This document shows positions 35,233 to 46,624 of a stretch of DNA of 46,977 nucleotides, one piece after another. The DNA is taken from positions 1 to 46,977 of the forward strand of contig CAZSWS010000014.1 in the NCBI GenBank assembly GCA_964610765.1, written 5' to 3'. Origin of the DNA: an uncultured Parabacteroides sp. Its GTDB lineage: Bacteria > Bacteroidota > Bacteroidia > Bacteroidales > Tannerellaceae. How positions within the stretch are numbered: position 1 is the stretch's first letter; each line of letters begins with the position of its first letter. Position numbers and translations under genes: made by a program. The notes below the pieces were generated by a model. The model made no database searches and had not been told where the DNA came from. It worked only from the letters and a program-made list of their open reading frames with translations.

Positions 35233-37029
35233 ATGATAAAACGCACACGCCTTCTAATAGTTCTAACTTGCTTGTTTTTTTCAACAAATATACTCTATAC
35301 AAGCCAAGAAACGCAGGGTGAGCCGGGAACACAGTCCGCTTTCACTCATCGAATTGATTCCCTTGTCACCCTTTCCAAGCATGTATCCGGTCTGGAACGA
35401 ATCAATATTTACACGACTTTGCATACTATTTTATATTCGTATAATGATGCGGAAGCACATATTCAGTTGATGCATCGTTTTTTAAATATTACTAAGACCG
35501 AAAAAGATGAATTCGGGATGGCAAATGCCTATATGTTTTTAGTAGATGCGCTATACAATTATGACTATCCTCTAAACACGCTTCAAAAAGAAGCATTAGA
35601 AGCATTAGACGTTATTCGATATCTTGATTTTAAAAACGCCGAAATCATCTATTTCAATATAGCTGACCACCTGTTAATGAGATATCTGGCTTCAAAAAAA
35701 TATGAAAAAACATTGGCTTTAGGCAAAAAAATATATAAAGAGGCCAAAGAAAAGGAGTGTAGCTATGGACTGGCAGTCGCTCTTAAAAGCATGGGAAACA
35801 GCTATGATGCCCTCAAGGGTTATGATAAAGCAATCGAAGTGCACAAAGAAGTTATATCAATCAAGGGCGACGAATATACTTCTCAGGCACAGATGGATTC
35901 CTATAATTTCCTGGTAGATGTTTTAATAAAAGAAGATAGACCTAATGAAGCACTTGAGATATGTCAAAAGTTTGAAGCATTTATCAAGGATGAATGCACC
36001 GACAAGCTTAACTTAGATGCAGTCACATTAGATCGGATGTGGTTCTATTGTCACCTTTCTTATGTCGAAGTATACACATATCTTGAACAATATGCTAAGG
36101 CCGAAAATTATCTTGCTCATGCCGACACTTGTTGGATGCGCCATTCAGCTATTGCCGCATTTAACTTGGAGGATAGCCAATATGAGCTATTGTTAGCACA
36201 AAAGAAATATGAAGAGGCTGAAAAAACTCTAAATCGAATGGAAAGCGAACTTGGAGATACAGATCGATTCTATAAAAAGATGCGCCTGCTATTTTATCGT
36301 GCAGATTTAAATTATGTGAGAGGAAAACATCAAGCTGCTGCCGATGAATATAGAAAATATGCCATCAAAAATGATTCCATCAATAAAGTAGAAATAGCCG
36401 ATGAGCTAAGTAGGCTGAGAACCGAATATGAGGTAGACAAACTGGAATTTCAAAAGGAACAGCAAGCCAATAATCATCGCATGGCTATTATGTGGTTTTT
36501 GATTATTTTCATCTTATTATCCTCAATCATTATCATCATCATAGTTGGCTTACAGAAGCTCCGAGTGAAAAACCGTTCGTTAATTTATCGCATTTACGAA
36601 CAAGACGAGCAAGAAAGAAGATATGAAAAAATGCAAAACCTATGGATGGAAAATACACTTATTGATGTTTCAGAAAATAAAAAAAGACCAGAAGATATTC
36701 ATTCAAGACTCAAGGAACTGATGAAAGACCCTGCCGTCTTCACCGACCCTTCTATCAACAGAAAAGACATTGCAGAAAGATTAGGTACAAACGAAAAATA
36801 TGTTTACGATACTATTAAAGAGTTTTATGGCACTAATATTTCGGACTATATAAACAAATTGCGACTTAACTACGCCCGGGCTCTGCTGGCAATTCCTAAT
36901 GATAGACGCACTGTTGATGCAATAGCTCTTGAGTCTGGCTTTAATAGCCGCAGCACCTTCTATCGCCTTTTTAAAGAGCATTACGGAATGACTCCTATTG
37001 AATTTCGTCGACTTATTGCAACTTCATAG
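35233..37029 (+). CDS. Membrane-anchored AraC-family transcriptional regulator with an N-terminal TPR-like sensor domain.
   Basis: 598 aa. The order is a signal peptide, about 400 aa of TPR-like repeats, a single TM helix (MWFLIIFILLSSIIIIIIVGL), then a C-terminal AraC HTH (LESGFNSRSTFYRLFKEHYGMTPIEFRR). Confidence 0.75.
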   Translation: MIKRTRLLIVLTCLFFSTNILYTSQETQGEPGTQSAFTHRIDSLVTLSKHVSGLERINIYTTLHTILYSYNDAEAHIQLMHRFLNITKTEKDEFGMANAYMFLVDALYNYDYPLNTLQKEALEALDVIRYLDFKNAEIIYFNIADHLLMRYLASKKYEKTLALGKKIYKEAKEKECSYGLAVALKSMGNSYDALKGYDKAIEVHKEVISIKGDEYTSQAQMDSYNFLVDVLIKEDRPNEALEICQKFEAFIKDECTDKLNLDAVTLDRMWFYCHLSYVEVYTYLEQYAKAENYLAHADTCWMRHSAIAAFNLEDSQYELLLAQKKYEEAEKTLNRMESELGDTDRFYKKMRLLFYRADLNYVRGKHQAAADEYRKYAIKNDSINKVEIADELSRLRTEYEVDKLEFQKEQQANNHRMAIMWFLIIFILLSSIIIIIIVGLQKLRVKNRSLIYRIYEQDEQERRYEKMQNLWMENTLIDVSENKKRPEDIHSRLKELMKDPAVFTDPSINRKDIAERLGTNEKYVYDTIKEFYGTNISDYINKLRLNYARALLAIPNDRRTVDAIALESGFNSRSTFYRLFKEHYGMTPIEFRRLIATS

Positions 37030-37687: not shown

Positions 37688-39058
37688 ATGATAATTGGAA
37701 AAACTAAAAAAGGATACATCTTACTACTCCTACTATTAGGGAGCTTTTCGCTTACCTATTCACAGACGGAAGAGAGTAAGCATATACTCACCTTGTTTGA
37801 CAGTCGATTCGTAGAGTTGGACTCATTGATTTTCAATCCTCAGAGAGGTTTATGGGATACAGAAGGAACCTCTCCAAAACCGGATGAAGTAGCCCAATCA
37901 ATAGATAGAGAGCTACTAGACTCCATCGTTAATAAACGAGTCCAGGCAGAAGTATCTTTATTAAAAGCAGAAACAGGTCTACAACTCACCGGACAAACCT
38001 ATTACCGACTGGATGAAGGGTATGGCCTGGACGAAGACGATGCACTCTCACGATATAAAGGGAAAATACAGGCGGAAGCCCGGTGGTATTTTTTGCAAAG
38101 CTCTCTCTATAAACGTAAAGGTCGAATCAACGAACTACAGTTAAAAGGTCAAATTGACCGCCTTGCATATGAAAAAGAAAACTTAGGTATTCTAATCGGA
38201 AAACAAAAAATGGCATTCCGATTAAAATATGATAGTCTCCTCTGTAGCGTATTACTTCACCGTATTCAAAACCTCAGTTTACTAAGCAATGCACAAAGCT
38301 ATCTTTTACTCAATGAACACATCAGTAGCGACGAGCTACTTACAATTCTGAATGAGAAAGCCGAAGCTGAACGCTTATTAGCAACTATCGATGGAATATA
38401 CGCACCCTCTTCCGACTTATCCACTCCAAAAGGAGTTGTCATACAAATAGACACATTAAGCCTGATAGATTATATCCGACAAACACATACAGATTTAAGT
38501 ACCGTTCAACTTCGTATGGACTTACTAGAACAGCAACAAAAAAATACCAGCTATTGGTCTAGCTTCAATATTGCTCCCTTTGTTCGCTATTCTTACTACA
38601 CTCGTCCACATATATCAAACTCATCGAATGTTGATGCAGGAATTGTTTTTTCATTACCAATTTCCTCTGAAACAAAACGAAAAAAAGGTGTTTTACGTGC
38701 AGAACAAGATTTACTTTCTATCGAGAAGGATCGTCTTTCTGAGCGGATTTTAGATGATGTACACCTAACCTTATTAGAAGTAGAAAGACTGAATCGCGCC
38801 TCTATAGGCGAGTACAACCGACTTGTCGAACTTAAGTCTTATCTGACTATGCGATCAGATGCATACAACAACCGCATAGGTGAATATAGCCGCCTAGCAC
38901 GCATCAAAGAGTACAATAGCTACCTCCTCTGTTGGGAGAAACTCGTCATGTTTCAATACCAAAGAGACTGCCTCGTAGCCAACCTACAAGCTTATTTGAC
39001 AGACATTCCCATTCTTAAGTTCTGCCATGAACAATCACTCTCTACTATCAATAAATAA
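37688..39058 (+). CDS. TolC-like outer-membrane efflux/factor protein.
   Basis: 456 aa. It has a signal peptide and long Leu/Gln/Glu/Arg-rich coiled-coil segments in two halves. A beta-strand-prone tail is typical of the OEP family. It is first in a co-directional six-gene locus. Confidence 0.5.
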   Translation: MIIGKTKKGYILLLLLLGSFSLTYSQTEESKHILTLFDSRFVELDSLIFNPQRGLWDTEGTSPKPDEVAQSIDRELLDSIVNKRVQAEVSLLKAETGLQLTGQTYYRLDEGYGLDEDDALSRYKGKIQAEARWYFLQSSLYKRKGRINELQLKGQIDRLAYEKENLGILIGKQKMAFRLKYDSLLCSVLLHRIQNLSLLSNAQSYLLLNEHISSDELLTILNEKAEAERLLATIDGIYAPSSDLSTPKGVVIQIDTLSLIDYIRQTHTDLSTVQLRMDLLEQQQKNTSYWSSFNIAPFVRYSYYTRPHISNSSNVDAGIVFSLPISSETKRKKGVLRAEQDLLSIEKDRLSERILDDVHLTLLEVERLNRASIGEYNRLVELKSYLTMRSDAYNNRIGEYSRLARIKEYNSYLLCWEKLVMFQYQRDCLVANLQAYLTDIPILKFCHEQSLSTINK

Positions 39059-39076: not shown

Positions 39077-40459
39077 ATGAAAAACTTCGTTTACTATTCT
39101 CCGGAAGAAAAAGAAAACATAGAAGAGGTATTAAAAGAACGAAAGCGAAAAATAAATCGGCAGCAGATTATTTTTGGACTCATTTTAGGCGTCATCTTAT
39201 TCACCTTAGCATTATACCTTTTTCGCAATATATATTATACAGAGTACGATGGGTATGTACATGTAGACGTGAATCAAGTTCGCACCCCTGTTAATATGTT
39301 CTTAGATAGTGTTTTTGTAGAAGAAGGGGATGTCGTGATGCCCGGCGACACACTTTACTCCTACTATATGCTGGACATGTTTGTAGAGCAAAGCAACTTA
39401 AACAATGAGCCAGGCGTGGTCGTTATGGATCGAAACATGCAAATACGCTATGTAACATCACTTCAAAACATGAATGTGCTACGTGTTAGGATTGAAGAGC
39501 TTAAACGACAAATTGCTATTGAAAATCACAACATAAGCTTCGGTTTAAGTGATAATGCCCATAAGCTTGACCTTGAACGTGCCCTAAAAGAAGCAGAGGC
39601 ACAACTAAAAGCATTAGGACAAGAGGCTTGGATGTTGAGACAGATGAAAGACATAACAAGCAAAGGGGTGAATCGCTCCGGATATAACCCGGAAGAACCT
39701 ACTAGTATGCAGGTTTATAATGACTACCTGTCGTTCTCATCAAGAGATGCGATGGTTTATCGGCTTTCGATTGACTCTTCTATTGTAATCAAAGTATCTG
39801 CTCCAAACCGCATGGTGTTTTTTGAAAAGGAAACGATTTTATCTACTCAACACCTCAATTTAGATGCAAACAACCTACAAATATTAGCATACATACCTAT
39901 TGATAAGATGGATCGAATCACGAATAATTCTACGGCCTCTATTACCGTCAATAGAGATGTATCCTTCAAAGCACATGTATCTGTGTTAGGAACACGCACT
40001 GAAGCCATCCCTGAACACCTTCGAAGCTATTTTATGCGAAAAAATACGGCGATTATTGCCAACCTGGATATTGACCGCGGACAAGTAGTGCCTTTCTGGT
40101 CTGTAGCAGCCGGTGTACCTGTTAAAGTACGTGTTCGAAGTTTCGACTCGTGGGGCGATTATAAAGTAGGCGATTACCTGTGGTTTATAACGGGGAAAGG
40201 CTTTTATCAAAACTCGCTGGACGTATTTATCAAAAGACAGGAACTTCGTAAAGCCGGACATGAAAGAACCACCCCCGAAGAGTTAGAACGCTTAGTTCCG
40301 GGTTCTGATAATCCTTATATCCTGAAAACACCTTTGACAAACAGAACTGATTCTCTAAAAAAGGTTCAACCTAGTCCACTAGAAAAAGAAGTTGCCCCAA
40401 CAGAAACAAAAGATTCCTCAGATGTGAAAATTCATAACAATCAACAGAACAATGAATAA
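39077..40459 (+). CDS. HlyD-family periplasmic adaptor (membrane-fusion protein).
   Basis: 460 aa. An N-terminal cytoplasmic tail is followed by one TM helix. The lipoyl-like half-motif is GYVHVDVNQVRTPVNMFLDSVFVEEGDVVMPGDTLYSYYMLD. A long coiled-coil and a beta-barrel region follow. Confidence 0.6.
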   Translation: MKNFVYYSPEEKENIEEVLKERKRKINRQQIIFGLILGVILFTLALYLFRNIYYTEYDGYVHVDVNQVRTPVNMFLDSVFVEEGDVVMPGDTLYSYYMLDMFVEQSNLNNEPGVVVMDRNMQIRYVTSLQNMNVLRVRIEELKRQIAIENHNISFGLSDNAHKLDLERALKEAEAQLKALGQEAWMLRQMKDITSKGVNRSGYNPEEPTSMQVYNDYLSFSSRDAMVYRLSIDSSIVIKVSAPNRMVFFEKETILSTQHLNLDANNLQILAYIPIDKMDRITNNSTASITVNRDVSFKAHVSVLGTRTEAIPEHLRSYFMRKNTAIIANLDIDRGQVVPFWSVAAGVPVKVRVRSFDSWGDYKVGDYLWFITGKGFYQNSLDVFIKRQELRKAGHERTTPEELERLVPGSDNPYILKTPLTNRTDSLKKVQPSPLEKEVAPTETKDSSDVKIHNNQQNNE

Positions 40460-41876
40460 AAAGAAGTACGATATTATTACAAACATCAACAATCGACGTA
40501 TTTTGGTCATCAACGACATACTCGACATTGAGCAAACACCTGCGTTAACATTCAATGATTTTGATGCAATTTTCTTGAATTTAACCAGTTCTATCACTGA
40601 GAAAAATCTACTTGCTATTCGGTTAGCATCTCCCCTACTCTCTGAAAAATGTCGTTTTAAGCCTTGCTATGTGACGCAAAGACTCCGCGGATGCCTTGAA
40701 CTTGATGGCATCACGATAGATGGATATGCAGTCACCCCTCATGCGAAAAACATGACGAATGGGATTGAGGAACTTTACCATAGGATGAGCCGAATAAACT
40801 TTTTACTAGATACAAAACCCGTTGTAAGTAGTGGTGAAGAGTTTTTCCGAATTTTCCGCTATGCTATCTCGCGTGGTCGGTTTACTTTCACCAGCCGACC
40901 CATTCCGGGGTTAAATATTGGAGCTACGTCCTTGTTTTCATATACCCAAACTAACAGGTGTTGCGAAATGCAACGCACCGGTCAGCACCATTTTTGTTAC
41001 GCTCAATTATTAAAGCAAGGTTATATTCGATATTTGCGTTTTGTAGAAAAAATACACCTATGCCCTCATTGCGGAAATAGTCATTTGCTCTTTATAGAAA
41101 CTTGCCAAAAATGCAACAGCTCGAATATCATTGAAGAGCCTGTATTGCATCATTTTAGATGTGCAAATGTAACACCCGAGTCTACTTATCAATGGGATGG
41201 AGCGCTAAGATGCCCTAAATGCAAACACTACCTTCGTCATATTGGTATAGATTATGACCGACCGTCAGCCATATATACCTGTCAGCAATGCGATAACTCG
41301 TTTGTACATGCAGGTATGCGCGTGCTGTGCACCTCTTGCAAAAAAACGTCAAAAACAGAAGAACTTCTTCCTGAAAACATCGAAGAGTTTGAATTCACGG
41401 CTGAAGGAATCAAAGCATTTGCTTCATACGAAATCATTCAAACACTTTCGCAGGTAGCCTTCACCGGCTACTCTTCCATGGGTGATTTCACCAATTATAT
41501 CCGGATGATAGCCTTATCAGACGACAAAAAGAAAAACGCATTAATCATCATACGTTTTTTAATTTCAGAATCTATGTCTGACAAAAACGATCGAACAACG
41601 ACCATCCTGCCCGTGGTATATGCCATGAAGCGTTTCTCTAACTATAAAAGCACTATATGGAAGAACAACTACTTTTTTGCAGCCTATGTTCCTGAAGGAG
41701 ATATTGCAAGAATGAGAGAAGAAATGAAACAAGAACTAAAGTCACAATTATCCAACTACCAAGAAGAGCATAAAGACTTTCAGTTTGAACTTATTAAAGC
41801 TCACACATACTACGCCGGTAACGATGTTGAGCTATTCATTAATACGATTAAAAACGACCCCATTCATCAAGAATGA
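40452..41876 (+). CDS. Cysteine-rich hypothetical protein: an N-terminal receiver-like region plus a multi-zinc-ribbon (5x CxxC) domain.
   Basis: 474 aa. Its start overlaps the HlyD stop by 8 nt. The CxxC pairs are CPHC, CQKC, CPKC, CQQC and CTSC, plus HHFRC, all within about 110 aa. The N-terminus RRILVINDILD...FDAIFLNL resembles a degenerate REC fold. No TM helices are present. Confidence 0.45.
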   Translation: MNKKKYDIITNINNRRILVINDILDIEQTPALTFNDFDAIFLNLTSSITEKNLLAIRLASPLLSEKCRFKPCYVTQRLRGCLELDGITIDGYAVTPHAKNMTNGIEELYHRMSRINFLLDTKPVVSSGEEFFRIFRYAISRGRFTFTSRPIPGLNIGATSLFSYTQTNRCCEMQRTGQHHFCYAQLLKQGYIRYLRFVEKIHLCPHCGNSHLLFIETCQKCNSSNIIEEPVLHHFRCANVTPESTYQWDGALRCPKCKHYLRHIGIDYDRPSAIYTCQQCDNSFVHAGMRVLCTSCKKTSKTEELLPENIEEFEFTAEGIKAFASYEIIQTLSQVAFTGYSSMGDFTNYIRMIALSDDKKKNALIIIRFLISESMSDKNDRTTTILPVVYAMKRFSNYKSTIWKNNYFFAAYVPEGDIARMREEMKQELKSQLSNYQEEHKDFQFELIKAHTYYAGNDVELFINTIKNDPIHQE

Positions 41877-41891
41877 GTAAAAGAAAATATC

Positions 41892-43214
41892 ATGCTGGAC
41901 TATGCATTTGAAATATTTGATGGCATCGTTGCTTGTTTTACATCGAACCTATCGTGGAGATCTACCATAGCTACCTTTTGGTTTCTTTTCTTTGTGGACT
42001 TTCCTCGCTACTATTTATTGGATTTTGTTGCGGCAGGAAGACATGGATTTACTTGGCGTTCACGCCGTAAAAAAAGAGAATTAGCCCGGCGAATGCTTTA
42101 CATTGAAAAGCCTTTCATAAGTATACTTGTTCCCGGAAAAAACGAAGGGAAACACATTTATGCCTTATTGAAGTCAATTCGTGAACAGACATACACCAAC
42201 TATGAAATTATCATCATTGACGATGGATCGGATGACACAACACCAATGGTCTGTCGAGATTTGGACCAAGCCGGGCTGATTGATAAATATTACCGCCTTT
42301 TTGATCGAGGAGGAAAAGCCTCAGCAGCTAATTATGGAGCCTATTATGCTAAAGGAAAATATATCGTTCACATGGACGCTGACAGTTCTTTAGACCGGGA
42401 TGCCATTGAAAAGATATTGATTCCATTTTATTATGACCGAAGGATAAAAGGCGTAGGAGGCTGTGTGAAGGTTCGCAATGCTTATGCAACTGTTTGTACA
42501 GCTATGCAAGCTTTAGAGTATTTAAGATGCATCCTGATTGGGCGAATGGTCACTAATATGTTTGGGCTATACCACATTATATCGGGAGCTTTCGGAGCTT
42601 TTGAAGCCGAAACAATCCGCCAGTTGGGTTGTTGGGACGTAGGACCGGGTATGGATGGAGACATCACACAAAAAATACGCAAAGCCGGCTATAAGGTTTG
42701 GTTCGCAGAAGATTCAATCTGTATGACAAACGTGCCCGAAAAATGGAAAGATTTATATCTGCAGCGATATCGTTGGTCGAAATCATTGGTGAGGTTCCGG
42801 ATTCGTAAACACAGAGACATCTTCAGAGCAGATAAGAATTTCTCATTTTCAAATATGTTCTCAAACTTAGACTGCATCTTTTATGACTTTATCTTGAACT
42901 ACATCTGGTTCTTCTACATCATCACACTCATATTTGCTAATACTGATCGACTTTGGGAGATTATCGTTGTTGCTTGGTTGATTCGTTTTTCATTCACACT
43001 GCTTGCTTTCCTTGTCATTCAGTGTGTATCAGAAAGAGCCAGAGAAGAAAGGGCCTTGGGTTGCTATCTGTTGCTGTCTACACTTTATATAGGTTATTTC
43101 TTACGCACAGTTCGCTTAATAGGGCATACAGCTGAATTATTCTTTTTCTCCTCCTATAAAGATAGATGGAATCCCAAAAAGACCTCTATCGTGGCAAGAG
43201 TTGAACATATTTAA
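41892..43214 (+). CDS. Processive family-2 glycosyltransferase (PgaC/IcaA/NodC-like polysaccharide synthase).
   Basis: 440 aa. The motifs are the DxD element IIIIDDGSDDTT, the HMDADS element, and LQRYRWSKS (QxxRW). The GT domain is flanked by N-terminal TM helices (2) and C-terminal TM helices (3-4), as in PgaC. Confidence 0.8.
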   Translation: MLDYAFEIFDGIVACFTSNLSWRSTIATFWFLFFVDFPRYYLLDFVAAGRHGFTWRSRRKKRELARRMLYIEKPFISILVPGKNEGKHIYALLKSIREQTYTNYEIIIIDDGSDDTTPMVCRDLDQAGLIDKYYRLFDRGGKASAANYGAYYAKGKYIVHMDADSSLDRDAIEKILIPFYYDRRIKGVGGCVKVRNAYATVCTAMQALEYLRCILIGRMVTNMFGLYHIISGAFGAFEAETIRQLGCWDVGPGMDGDITQKIRKAGYKVWFAEDSICMTNVPEKWKDLYLQRYRWSKSLVRFRIRKHRDIFRADKNFSFSNMFSNLDCIFYDFILNYIWFFYIITLIFANTDRLWEIIVVAWLIRFSFTLLAFLVIQCVSERAREERALGCYLLLSTLYIGYFLRTVRLIGHTAELFFFSSYKDRWNPKKTSIVARVEHI

Positions 43215-43385: not shown

Positions 43386-44666
43386 ATGAATGAAAAAAAA
43401 ACTGAAATAGGCATTATCGGCTTAGGCTATGTCGGGTTTCCTCTGGCTTGTCTTTTCGCATGTAAATATGCGGTAATTGGTTATGATTTAAACGAAAAAA
43501 GGGTCAATGAGATTAATAATGGTCGTGATGAAACCCAAGAAGTAGCTTCAGAAAAGATTGATAATGCGCTAAAAAACGGGTTAGTCTGCACGACTAACAA
43601 AGAGCTACTCAAACCATGTAATATCTACATCGTAGCAGTACCTACACCTGTAGACAAACGCAATCTACCGGATTTATCACCCCTTGAAAGGGCAAGCAAA
43701 TTGATAGGTGAAGTCATTTCAGCAGGTGATATCGTCATCTATGAGTCAACCGTTTCTCCGGGAACGACTGAAGAGTTTTGCGCACCTATCATAGAGCAAG
43801 TATCAGGGCTCAAACTTAATAGAGATTTTTATCTTGCTTATTCGCCCGAACGCATCAACCCCGGAGACAAAACACGTACCATAGAGCATATCTGTAAAAT
43901 AACTTCCGGTTCAACTCCTGAAGCAGCCGAACGGGTAGATGAGCTTTACAACTCTGTATTGTTGAATGGAACCTTCCGAGCGGCCTCTATAAAAGTAGCT
44001 GAGGCTGCCAAAATCTTAGAAAACACACAAAGAGACGTAAATATCGCGCTCATAAACGAGATAGCTACCATACTTAACAAACTCGATATTAGCACAGAAG
44101 AAGTATTAAAAGCTGCGGGTACAAAGTGGAACTTCTTACCTTTTACACCAGGTTTAGTAGGCGGCCATTGTATCAGTGTTGACCCCTATTACCTGATAGA
44201 AAAAGCAAACTCTATCGGCATCGTTCCAAGAATTATTATTGAGGCCAGAAGAGTTAATAATACGATGGGCACCTATATTGTAGAGCAAGTGATACATCAT
44301 CTAAATCAGGTCGGCATACCTATTTGCAACAGTCATATCCTAATTCTTGGATTTACATTCAAAGAAAACTGCCACGACACCCGCAATACAAAGGTTATAG
44401 ATATTTATAAAACTCTCTCAACATACACTCCACACATCCATGTGTTTGACCCATGGGTTGACAAACAAGATGTTAAAAAGAACTATGGTCTTCAAATAGA
44501 GACCAGCAAAGAGAATCTGCTTGCAGGAAGTTATGACGCTGTGATTCATTGTGTAAGTCATGATTGTTTTAAGCAACTTAACCTTTCTTCTTTATGTAAG
44601 GAAGGTGGCGTCTTTTATGACGTAAAAGGTTCACTCTCTCCGGAAATTGCTACTGCAAGACTATGA
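43386..44666 (+). CDS. UDP-N-acetyl-hexosamine 6-dehydrogenase (WecC/TviB/WbpO-type nucleotide-sugar dehydrogenase).
   Basis: 426 aa. The N-terminal Rossmann motif is IGIIGLGYVGFPLA. The catalytic-cysteine motif GGHCISVDPYYL is the WecC/TviB variant rather than the Ugd variant (GGSCFPKD). Confidence 0.75.
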   Translation: MNEKKTEIGIIGLGYVGFPLACLFACKYAVIGYDLNEKRVNEINNGRDETQEVASEKIDNALKNGLVCTTNKELLKPCNIYIVAVPTPVDKRNLPDLSPLERASKLIGEVISAGDIVIYESTVSPGTTEEFCAPIIEQVSGLKLNRDFYLAYSPERINPGDKTRTIEHICKITSGSTPEAAERVDELYNSVLLNGTFRAASIKVAEAAKILENTQRDVNIALINEIATILNKLDISTEEVLKAAGTKWNFLPFTPGLVGGHCISVDPYYLIEKANSIGIVPRIIIEARRVNNTMGTYIVEQVIHHLNQVGIPICNSHILILGFTFKENCHDTRNTKVIDIYKTLSTYTPHIHVFDPWVDKQDVKKNYGLQIETSKENLLAGSYDAVIHCVSHDCFKQLNLSSLCKEGGVFYDVKGSLSPEIATARL

Positions 44667-44725
44667 GAATAAAAAATCTGCGAGTCCTACACAACCTTAG
44701 TATTAAAAAATTAAAATATTTACAC

Positions 44726-46624
44726 ATGAAAACAAGATACTTTTTATTATTTCTAACCATATTTTTATATGCGTGCACATCTCATGAAGAAGATTTGCCG
44801 GATCCTGATCCCGGAAAAGAAGAGCCGGTTTGGTCGGTCATTGATGATACTTTTAAACCCACAAAACGGATAGCATTGTTAGATTTAACTCAACGCAACA
44901 ATGAAGATGAATCCGGCAACATAAATGGACGGAATCTTTATTCGGCCGAATATATGCTAGAAATTGCAGGCACACCATCTTTCACAACCAAAGACATTAA
45001 AGAAGCGATAGAAAAAGGAAGCGTCATCCTTTTTTCTTCTCCGGTATTGAGCAACACATTTACTTCGATAGAGTTAGACGAATTGCTTGAATGGGTAAGA
45101 AGTGGTGGAATAATTGTGTCTCCTGCACTTGTAAATATCACCAGCCAAACCGAGCTTTTATTTGGCATTACTGATTCAAAATACAACAAATTAAGGCATA
45201 GCATCTTCTGGGAAAGTAGCCAAATGACCGAAAAAGAGCTGGAGTATATGGATGAGGAAGAAGAAAAAAGTATTTCGACTGGAAAAGAAGGAGACACATC
45301 CGGCCAAGCCATAAAGTCTTATGGCTATACGGTATCAAGTGCAGATGTGCTTGCTTCATTCAATTCGGGCGAAGCAGCTGTGGTTCACAACAAATTAGGT
45401 GACGGGACCGTCTATTCTTTTGGATTGTTATGGCGAGACATCATTCAACGCTCACAACTCAATAAAGACTTCTCTGCTTCCCGCATATTCAGCAATGGTT
45501 TTGAACCTTCAGCAGATATCATACCTCTTTTCATTCGATCTCTTTACACTAAACATCAACCAACAGTTGTTTGGAAGTTTACCATACCGGATGGATTTCA
45601 GAGCGTCCTAATTCCGACACATGATTGCGACTCAAGAACAGCCTATGATGAAATGTGGCATATGTCTACGTATGAAAAGAAAATCGGTTTGAAAGCACAT
45701 TATTTTATAACCATACACTATTTTCGTGATAAGTCTTATTTATCTGCATTTTATGACGATGATGCTATCAAAAAGTGTAAAGAACTACTGGAAGATGGTC
45801 ATAGCATTGGCAGTCATAGCATTGGACACTTTCTCGATTTTTCAGTTACTGAACGATTTCCCATGACGATTGTCTCAAAAGACACCTATCGCCCAACACA
45901 TGATATTACAACAGGAATTACCACCGATGGTTCAACGTGGGGAGAGGTTATCTTATCTAAGCAGATTATTGAGGCTGATCTCGGAAATAAAGTCAGATCG
46001 TTTCGCACAGGACACCTCGTAACCAATAAGCTTCTCCCAAAAGCTCAGTTAGAAGGTGGATATTCATTTTCTTCTTGTTTTGGAGCCGGTCACTTGTTAA
46101 GTCAATTTCCATTCCAAGAACGACTTGGCTATGAATGGATAGGTGAATTATCTTCCGTATTACAAATGCCCCTACATCTTTCTGATGTATTTACAGATGA
46201 GCCCATGGACGAAGACAACTGGAGAGAAAAAATCCCTATTTGGCTAGAAACATTAAACAAACTAAAAGGGAACTATGCCCCTGCTATTTTATTGATACAC
46301 CCAAACAGAGAGTGGAAAATGAGAGCGGAGGAAATGTTGGTTAATAAAATGGATCGGTCAACAATAGGACTTTGGAACTTTGAAGATTATGGAGACTTCT
46401 GGTTAAACAGGCGAGCATTAGATTTTGATTTTTGTTACATACCGGAAGGAAACAAAGTATTGATTAAGGCTAAACGGGAAGAGATTGTAAAAAATAGAGG
46501 ATTAGCCTTCGCTATTGAAACGCTCGTTGTTCCTAATGAAGTAATTATTGTTGATGAAAACATGTATGGATATAAATTATCACTGAAACAAATAGCAGAC
46601 AATCGATTTTTAGCTATACTATAA
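44726..46624 (+). CDS. Polysaccharide deacetylase (CE4, NodB-homology) lipoprotein with an N-terminal domain of about 270 aa of unknown function.
   Basis: The track ORF starts at 44663 and overlaps the dehydrogenase stop. The probable start is MKTRYFLLFLTIFLYAC (lipobox) at 44726. CE4 motif-1-like IPTHDCDS lies at about residue 297, and motif-2-like DGHSIGSHSIGH follows. Confidence 0.55.
   Translation: MKTRYFLLFLTIFLYACTSHEEDLPDPDPGKEEPVWSVIDDTFKPTKRIALLDLTQRNNEDESGNINGRNLYSAEYMLEIAGTPSFTTKDIKEAIEKGSVILFSSPVLSNTFTSIELDELLEWVRSGGIIVSPALVNITSQTELLFGITDSKYNKLRHSIFWESSQMTEKELEYMDEEEEKSISTGKEGDTSGQAIKSYGYTVSSADVLASFNSGEAAVVHNKLGDGTVYSFGLLWRDIIQRSQLNKDFSASRIFSNGFEPSADIIPLFIRSLYTKHQPTVVWKFTIPDGFQSVLIPTHDCDSRTAYDEMWHMSTYEKKIGLKAHYFITIHYFRDKSYLSAFYDDDAIKKCKELLEDGHSIGSHSIGHFLDFSVTERFPMTIVSKDTYRPTHDITTGITTDGSTWGEVILSKQIIEADLGNKVRSFRTGHLVTNKLLPKAQLEGGYSFSSCFGAGHLLSQFPFQERLGYEWIGELSSVLQMPLHLSDVFTDEPMDEDNWREKIPIWLETLNKLKGNYAPAILLIHPNREWKMRAEEMLVNKMDRSTIGLWNFEDYGDFWLNRRALDFDFCYIPEGNKVLIKAKREEIVKNRGLAFAIETLVVPNEVIIVDENMYGYKLSLKQIADNRFLAIL

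Follow-up and report, generated by a model that had tools for sequence, protein, structure and literature searches.

A TackOD1-domain protein as a candidate regulatory subunit in a putative exopolysaccharide synthase locus of an uncultured Parabacteroides sp.

What is the role of a soluble, cysteine-rich protein whose gene lies between those of a periplasmic adaptor and a polysaccharide synthase? This question is raised by a 46,977-nt stretch of DNA from an uncultured Parabacteroides sp. (assembly GCA_964610765.1, contig CAZSWS010000014.1; the whole stretch is referred to as the window), in which a gene for a 474-aa protein with 17 Cys residues is located between the genes for a HlyD-like adaptor and a processive family 2 glycosyltransferase (GT2). 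Our analysis suggests, with moderate confidence, that this protein serves, on the cytoplasmic side, as an accessory and probably regulatory subunit of an exopolysaccharide machine that has four parts and resembles a tripartite efflux pump in its construction. The soluble three-domain architecture of the protein and the strict linkage of its gene to the synthase and to TolC- and HlyD-like partners are directly supported by the data described below.

Architecture of the cysteine-rich protein

The coordinates of the open reading frame (ORF), its length, and its 8-nt overlap with the adaptor gene, as given in the initial annotation, were all confirmed (Table 1). The upstream HlyD-like ORF (460 aa) ends at position 40459, and the genes of related loci are similarly arranged, with overlaps of 4-10 nt or gaps of 1-3 nt between neighbours. 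The start codon is supported by the homologues, which align from the same N-terminus. Neither a signal-like N-terminus nor a hydrophobic segment is present (the 19-residue Kyte-Doolittle mean peaks at 0.80), in agreement with the earlier statement that the protein lacks a signal peptide and a transmembrane (TM) helix. The AlphaFold2 (AF2) model, based on an alignment of 48 sequences (the window protein and its 47 clade relatives), is confident, with a predicted local distance difference test score (pLDDT) of 85.2 and a predicted template modelling score (pTM) of 0.81, but a Foldseek comparison with the PDB, which had been proposed as a check, returned nothing significant. No match was obtained in the NCBIfam scan, the PDB sequence search with the family profile returned only a chance match to a ribosomal zinc ribbon (E=1.1), and no similarity to any enzyme family was detected by Pfam, the PDB profile search, or Foldseek. 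The parts of the protein are unequally conserved, with mean pairwise identities of 65% in the Cys-rich core, 43% in the N-terminal domain, and 29% in the C-terminal domain; the two degenerate terminal domains are nevertheless full length in 46 of the 48 aligned members.

The protein had been described as uncharacterised, which is true of its function, but Pfam has a named domain, TackOD1, for the Cys-rich region. The window protein scores 145.6 bits against PF18551 (cutoff 32; E=1.7e-42), and all 48 aligned relatives match the same model. The domain probably begins somewhat upstream of the Pfam match, near aa 126, at a three-helix, winged-helix-like part. TackOD1 was defined as an output domain of thaumarchaeal response regulators, with a signature of 11 conserved Cys residues arranged as five CxxC motifs plus one HxxC (Galperin et al. 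2018, PMC5847659); a Cys module of this kind had thus been described before. The Pfam entry lists no function, bacterial relatives carry the NCBI name 'TackOD1 domain-containing metal-binding protein', and the family is catalogued but functionally unstudied.

In the window protein, 11 of the 17 Cys residues form this signature (C204/207, C218/221, H234..C237, C254/257, C277/280, and C293/296). All motifs quoted in the initial annotation (CPHC204, CQKC218, HHFRC233-237, CPKC254, CQQC277, and CTSC293) are present, whereas the spacings given for them (x12, x22, and x19) were wrong: the true arrangement is CPHC-x10-CQKC, then HHFRC, then CPKC-x19-CQQC-x12-CTSC, which occupies 93 residues (204-296). 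The core is the most conserved part of the protein. Among the 48 clade members, C204, C207, C218, C221, C237, C254, C257, C277, C280, and C293 are invariant, as are the non-Cys residues H233, H234, F235, R236, K256, H263, I264, G265, D267, Y268, D269, and P271; C296, retained in the window protein, is found in 34 members and has been lost in 14. Across 124 family representatives, all 11 Cys positions are 97-100% conserved (C296, 98%), i.e. the Cys positions are maintained in homologues. Weak DZR and Zn_ribbon matches, which recur in at least 31 of the 48 members, together with the TackOD1 match itself, support the zinc-ribbon character proposed for this region, and the 11 Cys and one His of the core could form up to three predicted zinc sites. 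A radical-SAM or Fe-S maturation protein was considered and rejected, as no such family is matched and the CxxC motifs are spaced as in zinc ribbons; TackOD1, rather than an unrelated enzyme family, is what the protein matches with confidence.

The family's most conserved stretch, aa 233-268 (41148-41255; HHFRCAN...CPKC..LRHIGxDYD), is also the only long region of the model with a pLDDT below 50, the confidence being low for aa 234-268. Such poor modelling of aa 233-271 would be expected of a metal- or partner-dependent surface, although it does not constitute proof of one.

The N-terminal domain contains the strings RRILVINDILD (15-25) and FDAIFLNL (37-44), in which a degenerate receiver domain had been recognised. 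The phospho-acceptor position, at the end of the third beta-strand, is Asn43 in the window protein (FDAIFLN) and D, N, E, or Q across the family. The Pfam receiver model PF00072 matches neither the window protein nor the aligned clade members, and a true receiver (REC) domain occupies the N-terminal position in two relatives (P0216 and P0242) and in a Roseibium protein. An hhalign comparison of the N-terminal domain with REC yielded the expected colinear alignment, but at P=0.033 it is too weak for proof. Eight residues of the domain, most of them polar, are invariant among the 48 clade members, including D38, K66, K70, and D90.

The C-terminal third is, according to the structural model, a catalytically dead GGDEF fold, which is kept in all 48 clade members. 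The same degenerate fold is found in PelD and BcsE, two regulators that the initial annotation named while stating that none known had such an architecture; that statement is not supported. The window protein carries KNNYF at the GGDEF position and RFSNYK at the position of the inhibitory site (I-site), in the arrangement RFSNYK-STIW-KNNYF. An intact GG[DE]EF motif was found in this domain in none of the 124 representatives and none of 127 non-Bacteroidota relatives, and an active diguanylate cyclase was therefore rejected. An SGEEF string at aa 126-130 is coincidental, being located in the helical part outside the GGDEF-like domain. In relatives, the same region matches the Pfam model PF00990, i.e. 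at 21-23.7 bits in five distant representatives and at 35 bits in an Aeromonas plasmid relative, and many non-Bacteroidota relatives carry a precomputed PF00990 annotation; the fold assignment thereby gains support from sequence. An hhalign comparison of the C-terminal domain with the non-Bacteroidota clade again gave the expected colinear alignment, at a P-value (0.028) too weak for proof.

An RxxD inhibitory site combined with a dead GGDEF active site is the hallmark of receptors for cyclic di-GMP (c-di-GMP), such as PelD, BcsE, and PopA. RxxD followed by five residues and NE[ST]xF is present in 109 of the 127 non-Bacteroidota relatives (86%; e.g. RESD-VISAL-NESVF in Alteromonas), and RxxD occurs in 36 of the 124 family representatives. 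The window clade has RFxxYK instead, with the Arg aligned with the R of RxxD and the Asp lost. This loss fits the literature, in which diguanylate cyclases are reported to be absent from the first Bacteroidetes to be sequenced (PMC1183210) and Porphyromonas gingivalis contains cyclic di-AMP (c-di-AMP) as its dominant dinucleotide, with c-di-GMP not detected (PMC9259658). Binding of c-di-GMP by the window protein is unlikely.

Linkage to the synthase and distribution of the family

The proteins encoded next to the TackOD1 gene in the window were compared by tblastn with 86 fetched Bacteroidota loci. The order outer-membrane protein, membrane-fusion protein (MFP), TackOD1 protein, and GT2 was observed wherever the contig was long enough. 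The GT2 gene, immediately downstream, is present in 84 loci, the adaptor gene in 83, and the outer-membrane protein gene in 77, and all misses are at contig ends. Co-occurrence with the GT2, which had been suggested as a check, was thus found, and this strict synteny supports the earlier proposal that the protein acts at the synthase from the cytoplasm, as an accessory or a regulator. The identities to the window copies range from 58 to 70% for the GT2 versus 31 to 56% for the TackOD1 protein. The TviB-like dehydrogenase and the 653-aa lipoprotein encoded downstream in the window were detected in only 49 and 5 of the loci, respectively, and can be regarded as variable accessories. Related loci other than the window encode different large proteins (640-940 aa) at the position of the lipoprotein.

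The TackOD1 gene abuts a processive GT2 gene in six distant loci as well, five with the same module and one from Roseibium. The five were found beside a Fib_succ_major gene, with a receiver-bearing family member, in a Nitrospirales metagenome-assembled genome (MAG), on a metagenome contig, and in Alteromonas ponticola. They encode a 664-700-aa protein (at least 394 aa in L090, where it is cut by the contig end), a 321-346-aa adaptor, the TackOD1 protein, and the GT2 (433-443 aa where complete), and their module genes frequently overlap. In Roseibium, the order is REC-TackOD1 protein, GT2, and HlyD-like protein, with the adaptor gene downstream, unlike in the other loci. This Roseibium module (Roseibium aggregatum plasmid NZ_CP128603.1, 238-12317) lies among genes for a CHASE-domain protein, two Hpt proteins, and a diguanylate cyclase, surroundings that look like a complete phosphorelay and c-di-GMP circuit. 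In a locus encoding a 53%-identical relative (L006, 17155-21416), the cassette lacks the dehydrogenase gene and is followed by genes for a hybrid histidine kinase, a response regulator, and another kinase.

A search of a clustered protein collection returned 223 homologues, nearly all full-length (~470 aa) and from Bacteroidales MAGs. The best is only 56% identical because the cluster (90% identity) of the exact window protein is represented by an 87-aa fragment; the exact protein itself is present, without a name, in the public collection (NCBI, Logan, and ENA; six contigs). A profile search of 1.84 billion representatives yielded 2200 clusters (50% identity) at E<=1e-3, 726 of them at E<=1e-30, and most are 440-500 aa in length with the layout of the window protein. 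Relatives occur in at least 569 GTDB species representatives, and those inspected are almost all Bacteroidales; named carriers include Segatella albensis, Paraprevotella clara, Phocaeicola fibrisolvens, Barnesiella, Muribaculaceae, Paludibacteraceae, and Alistipes. Other branches comprise Nitrospirales, Desulfobacteraceae, Alteromonas, Thalassotalea, Rheinheimera, Colwellia, Methyloprofundus, Desulfolithobacter, and Nitratifractor, to which plasmid searches added Aeromonas, Plesiomonas, Photobacterium, Roseibium, and haloarchaea. Unusual members include P0181 (669 aa), in which a UDP-sugar dehydrogenase C-terminal domain is fused ahead of the TackOD1 protein, and P0286 (475 aa), which combines TackOD1 with the restriction-endonuclease-like domain PF04471, of which its sequence suggests two repeats. 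The member on the Aeromonas caviae plasmid pKAM345_3 (L092, 5584-6966), a 29-kb mobilizable plasmid, consists of TackOD1 and a degenerate GGDEF domain (RDTD...SEEIL); its gene is near that of a PAS-domain chemoreceptor, and it is annotated as 'diguanylate cyclase' despite the degenerate motif.

Relatives help to identify the partner proteins. Pfam gave no match for the TolC/OEP-like copy, the orthologues of which match PF02321 (OEP) at 26.1, 19.9, and 17.6 bits; the adaptor has only weak Biotin_lipoyl_2 and EmrA matches, and counterparts at the same position of the module match HlyD_3 at 40.6 and 35.1 bits. The best NCBIfam match of the GT2, PgaC_IcaA, scores 153 bits, which is below the cutoff. 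Where the TviB-like dehydrogenase is present, the polymer probably contains N-acetylglucosaminuronic acid. The lipoprotein gene overlaps the dehydrogenase gene by 4 nt. Approximately 650 bp upstream of the cassette, a 598-aa protein with tetratricopeptide repeats (TPR) and an AraC-type helix-turn-helix (HTH) domain is encoded (35233-37029); none of the 86 related loci yielded a homologue, indicating that it is not a conserved part of the system. Tyrosine-integrase genes flank the synthase cassette in three distant Bacteroidales loci (Table 1), with HU-like and FtsK-like genes also nearby in L001 and L002, and the cassette may travel on integrative elements.

Table 1. Features of the TackOD1 gene, its product, and the surrounding genes
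Feature	Sequence	Coordinates	Strand	Description
TolC/OEP-like protein	window	37688..39058	+	456 aa; signal-peptide-like N-terminus; first gene of the module
HlyD-like membrane-fusion adaptor	window	39077..40459	+	one N-terminal TM helix (about aa 28-54)
Overlap ATGAATAA	window	40452..40459	+	8 nt; stop of the HlyD-like gene and start of the Cys-rich gene
Cys-rich protein ORF	window	40452..41876	+	474 aa; cytoplasmic; three parts: putative CheY/STAS-like domain, TackOD1, degenerate GGDEF fold
N-terminal alpha/beta domain	window	40452..40811	+	aa 1-120; beta-hairpin, then three beta-alpha units; putative CheY/STAS-like fold
Pfam TackOD1 (PF18551) match	window	40905..41393	+	aa 152-314
Cys-rich core	window	41052..41351	+	aa 201-300; five CxxC plus HxxC (H234..C237); invariant HHFRCA and HIGxDYDxP
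C-terminal degenerate GGDEF-fold domain	window	41394..41861	+	aa 315-470
Processive GT2 synthase	window	41892..43214	+	QRYRW motif; C-terminal TM helices
TviB-like UDP-N-acetylglucosamine 6-dehydrogenase	window	43386..44666	+	485.8 bits, under the equivalog cutoff of 592; putative precursor supply
Putative lipoprotein	window	44663..46624	+	653 aa; faint polysaccharide-deacetylase match (E=0.005)
Tyrosine-integrase genes	L001	1201-2409 and 11951-13174
Tyrosine-integrase gene	L002	9585-10808
Tyrosine-integrase gene	L005	1003-2058

Proposed role and alternative explanations

In the proposed machine, the TackOD1 protein and the processive GT2 synthase would act together with a HlyD-like adaptor and an outer-membrane protein of the TolC type, and the TackOD1 core would serve as an output surface that docks on the synthase or on the cytoplasmic tail of the adaptor, gating polymerisation or export. 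An output function is suggested by the conservation of the core (65%), which resembles that of the GT2 (58-70%) and exceeds that of the flanking domains (43 and 29%), and it also fits the position of the domain after receivers in archaea. The fast-evolving flanking domains would then be lineage-specific signal inputs. In non-Bacteroidota (Pseudomonadota, Nitrospirota, Desulfobacterota, and others), the RxxD site of the C-terminal domain would receive c-di-GMP in the manner of PelD, BcsE, and MxdA, and in some relatives, a phosphorylatable receiver would be the input. The Bacteroidales branch to which the window belongs has lost both Asp residues, that of the I-site and that of the phospho-acceptor position, which suggests that its input is a different one, e.g. 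another nucleotide, a partner protein, or the state of the Cys cluster with respect to metal or redox, or that the subunit has become constitutive.

Several points weigh against this proposal. The docking surface is purely what we infer for TackOD1, and its most conserved motif is modelled with low AF2 confidence; the regulatory role is drawn from synteny and domain analogy. PF00990 is unmatched by the window protein and its 47 clade relatives even at E<=1, and the poor conservation of the C-terminal domain is also compatible with a passive spacer. In addition, the TackOD1-GGDEF-like protein of the Aeromonas plasmid stands alone, with no GT2 gene nearby, indicating that the TackOD1 family is not obligatorily tied to a synthase.

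The absence of a recognisable input in the window clade raises the possibility that no signal is carried and that the protein is a purely structural assembly factor or scaffold, which would build or stabilise the synthase-adaptor complex. The degeneration of both input sites (Asn43 and RFxxYK), the translational coupling to structural genes, and the fast evolution of the flanking domains would all agree with this explanation. We regard it as rather unlikely, given that both degenerate domains have been retained at full length, that the eight invariant residues of the N-terminal domain are mostly polar, and that relatives clearly possess signalling inputs (REC and RxxD). Alternatively, the protein may still be a cyclic-dinucleotide receptor in Bacteroidales, in which the GGDEF fold or the TackOD1 core would bind c-di-AMP or another nucleotide and switch the synthase on; the persistence of the fold in 48 of 48 clade members, the alignment of the conserved Arg of RFxxYK with the R of RxxD, and the predominance of c-di-AMP in Por. 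gingivalis, where c-di-GMP was not detected (PMC9259658), are in its favour. Against it stand the loss of the I-site Asp and the nature of the remaining conservation, which comprises about five invariant or near-invariant positions (L305, D309, T316, G319, and G339) at the N-terminal edge of the domain, with no conserved pocket evident. GGDEF I-sites are also not known to bind c-di-AMP, and a receptor of this kind appears decidedly unlikely.

The combination of a winged-helix-like part and zinc ribbons could also be that of a DNA-binding transcription factor controlling the operon or other genes, but neither Pfam nor NCBIfam gave a match to an HTH family for this protein, its gene is inside the structural operon and overlaps its neighbours, being neither upstream nor divergent, and a separate AraC-type regulator is already encoded upstream in the window; these features make a transcription factor very improbable. 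We give still less credence to a catalytic or redox-active metal centre in the TackOD1 core, which would modify or prime the polymer or sense oxidants through its thiols. The invariant polar residues around the Cys cluster (H233, H234, R236, E243, K256, H263, D267, Y268, and D269) and the failure of AF2 to place this segment without a cofactor are what such a centre might produce; however, no enzyme family is similar, the CxxC spacing and the weak DZR and Zn_ribbon matches are typical of structural zinc ribbons, and TackOD1 acts as an 'output' beside receiver domains in archaea.

Synthase-dependent exopolysaccharide systems are normally switched by c-di-GMP via PilZ domains or degenerate GGDEF receptors. 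What is unusual is the loss of the c-di-GMP site, in a lineage reported to lack the messenger, alongside the retention of the subunit and its tight coupling to the synthase. Finding the signal of this receptor-like subunit, carried by the 569 or more species mentioned above, would reveal the control of an abundant, unstudied Bacteroidales polysaccharide, and the same work would provide TackOD1 with its first function; experiments could readily start from those non-Bacteroidota relatives in which RxxD is kept. As a tentative and rather doubtful generalization, TackOD1 might be a general output module that directly gates surface-polymer machines (bacterial GT2 synthases and thaumarchaeal type IV pili), with the member in gut Bacteroidales rewired to a different input, for which a partner receiver protein, c-di-AMP, or the redox state of zinc or thiols could be considered. 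Exopolysaccharide production in a group that dominates among gut bacteria would then have a switch that is independent of c-di-GMP.

Comparison with known systems

A literature search found no described synthase-dependent system of this type in Bacteroides, and the parallels come from other groups. The archaeal TackOD1 proteins (PMC5847659) share the 11-Cys signature and are likewise combined with receiver or receiver-like domains; they occur as TackOD1 alone, REC-TackOD1, or REC-wHTH (winged HTH)-TackOD1 in type IV pilus loci, whereas the window protein has an additional C-terminal degenerate GGDEF fold and is encoded in a GT2 synthase operon.

The functionally closest described case, likened here by description, appears to be mxdABCD of Shewanella oneidensis, the component list of which matches. 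MxdA, which is cytoplasmic, has a degenerate GGDEF domain and binds c-di-GMP; CheY3-P and the cyclase PdgA are its interaction partners, and its supposed role is activation of the polysaccharide machinery. The other genes encode the GT2 MxdB, the efflux-pump/MFP-like MxdC, and MxdD, a protein of no known homology (PMC3691769, PMC7666153, PMC11395469, PMC3409153). The Roseibium relative shares the A-B-C gene order with mxdABCD, whereas the window protein lacks the RxxD site and its operon has the order outer-membrane protein, MFP, regulator, and GT2. No Shewanella protein was among the named family matches. The NVDEF motif, which Rakshe et al. are said to have described in MxdA in 2011, was found at the GGDEF position in no family member.

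PelD of the Pseudomonas Pel system and BcsE of enterobacterial cellulose systems both have a dead or degenerate GGDEF fold with an I-site that binds c-di-GMP (RxGD in BcsE), the binding site that has been lost in the window protein. Both lack TackOD1, PelD being membrane-anchored with a GAF domain and BcsE possessing a RecA-like N-terminal domain. In systems with Alg44 (alginate) and BgsB-type adaptors, a GT2 synthase likewise works with an MFP-type periplasmic adaptor. The regulatory module of Alg44 is on the cytoplasmic side, and it is a PilZ c-di-GMP receptor fused to the adaptor, whereas the window encodes its putative regulatory module as a protein of its own, made up of unrelated domains and translationally coupled.

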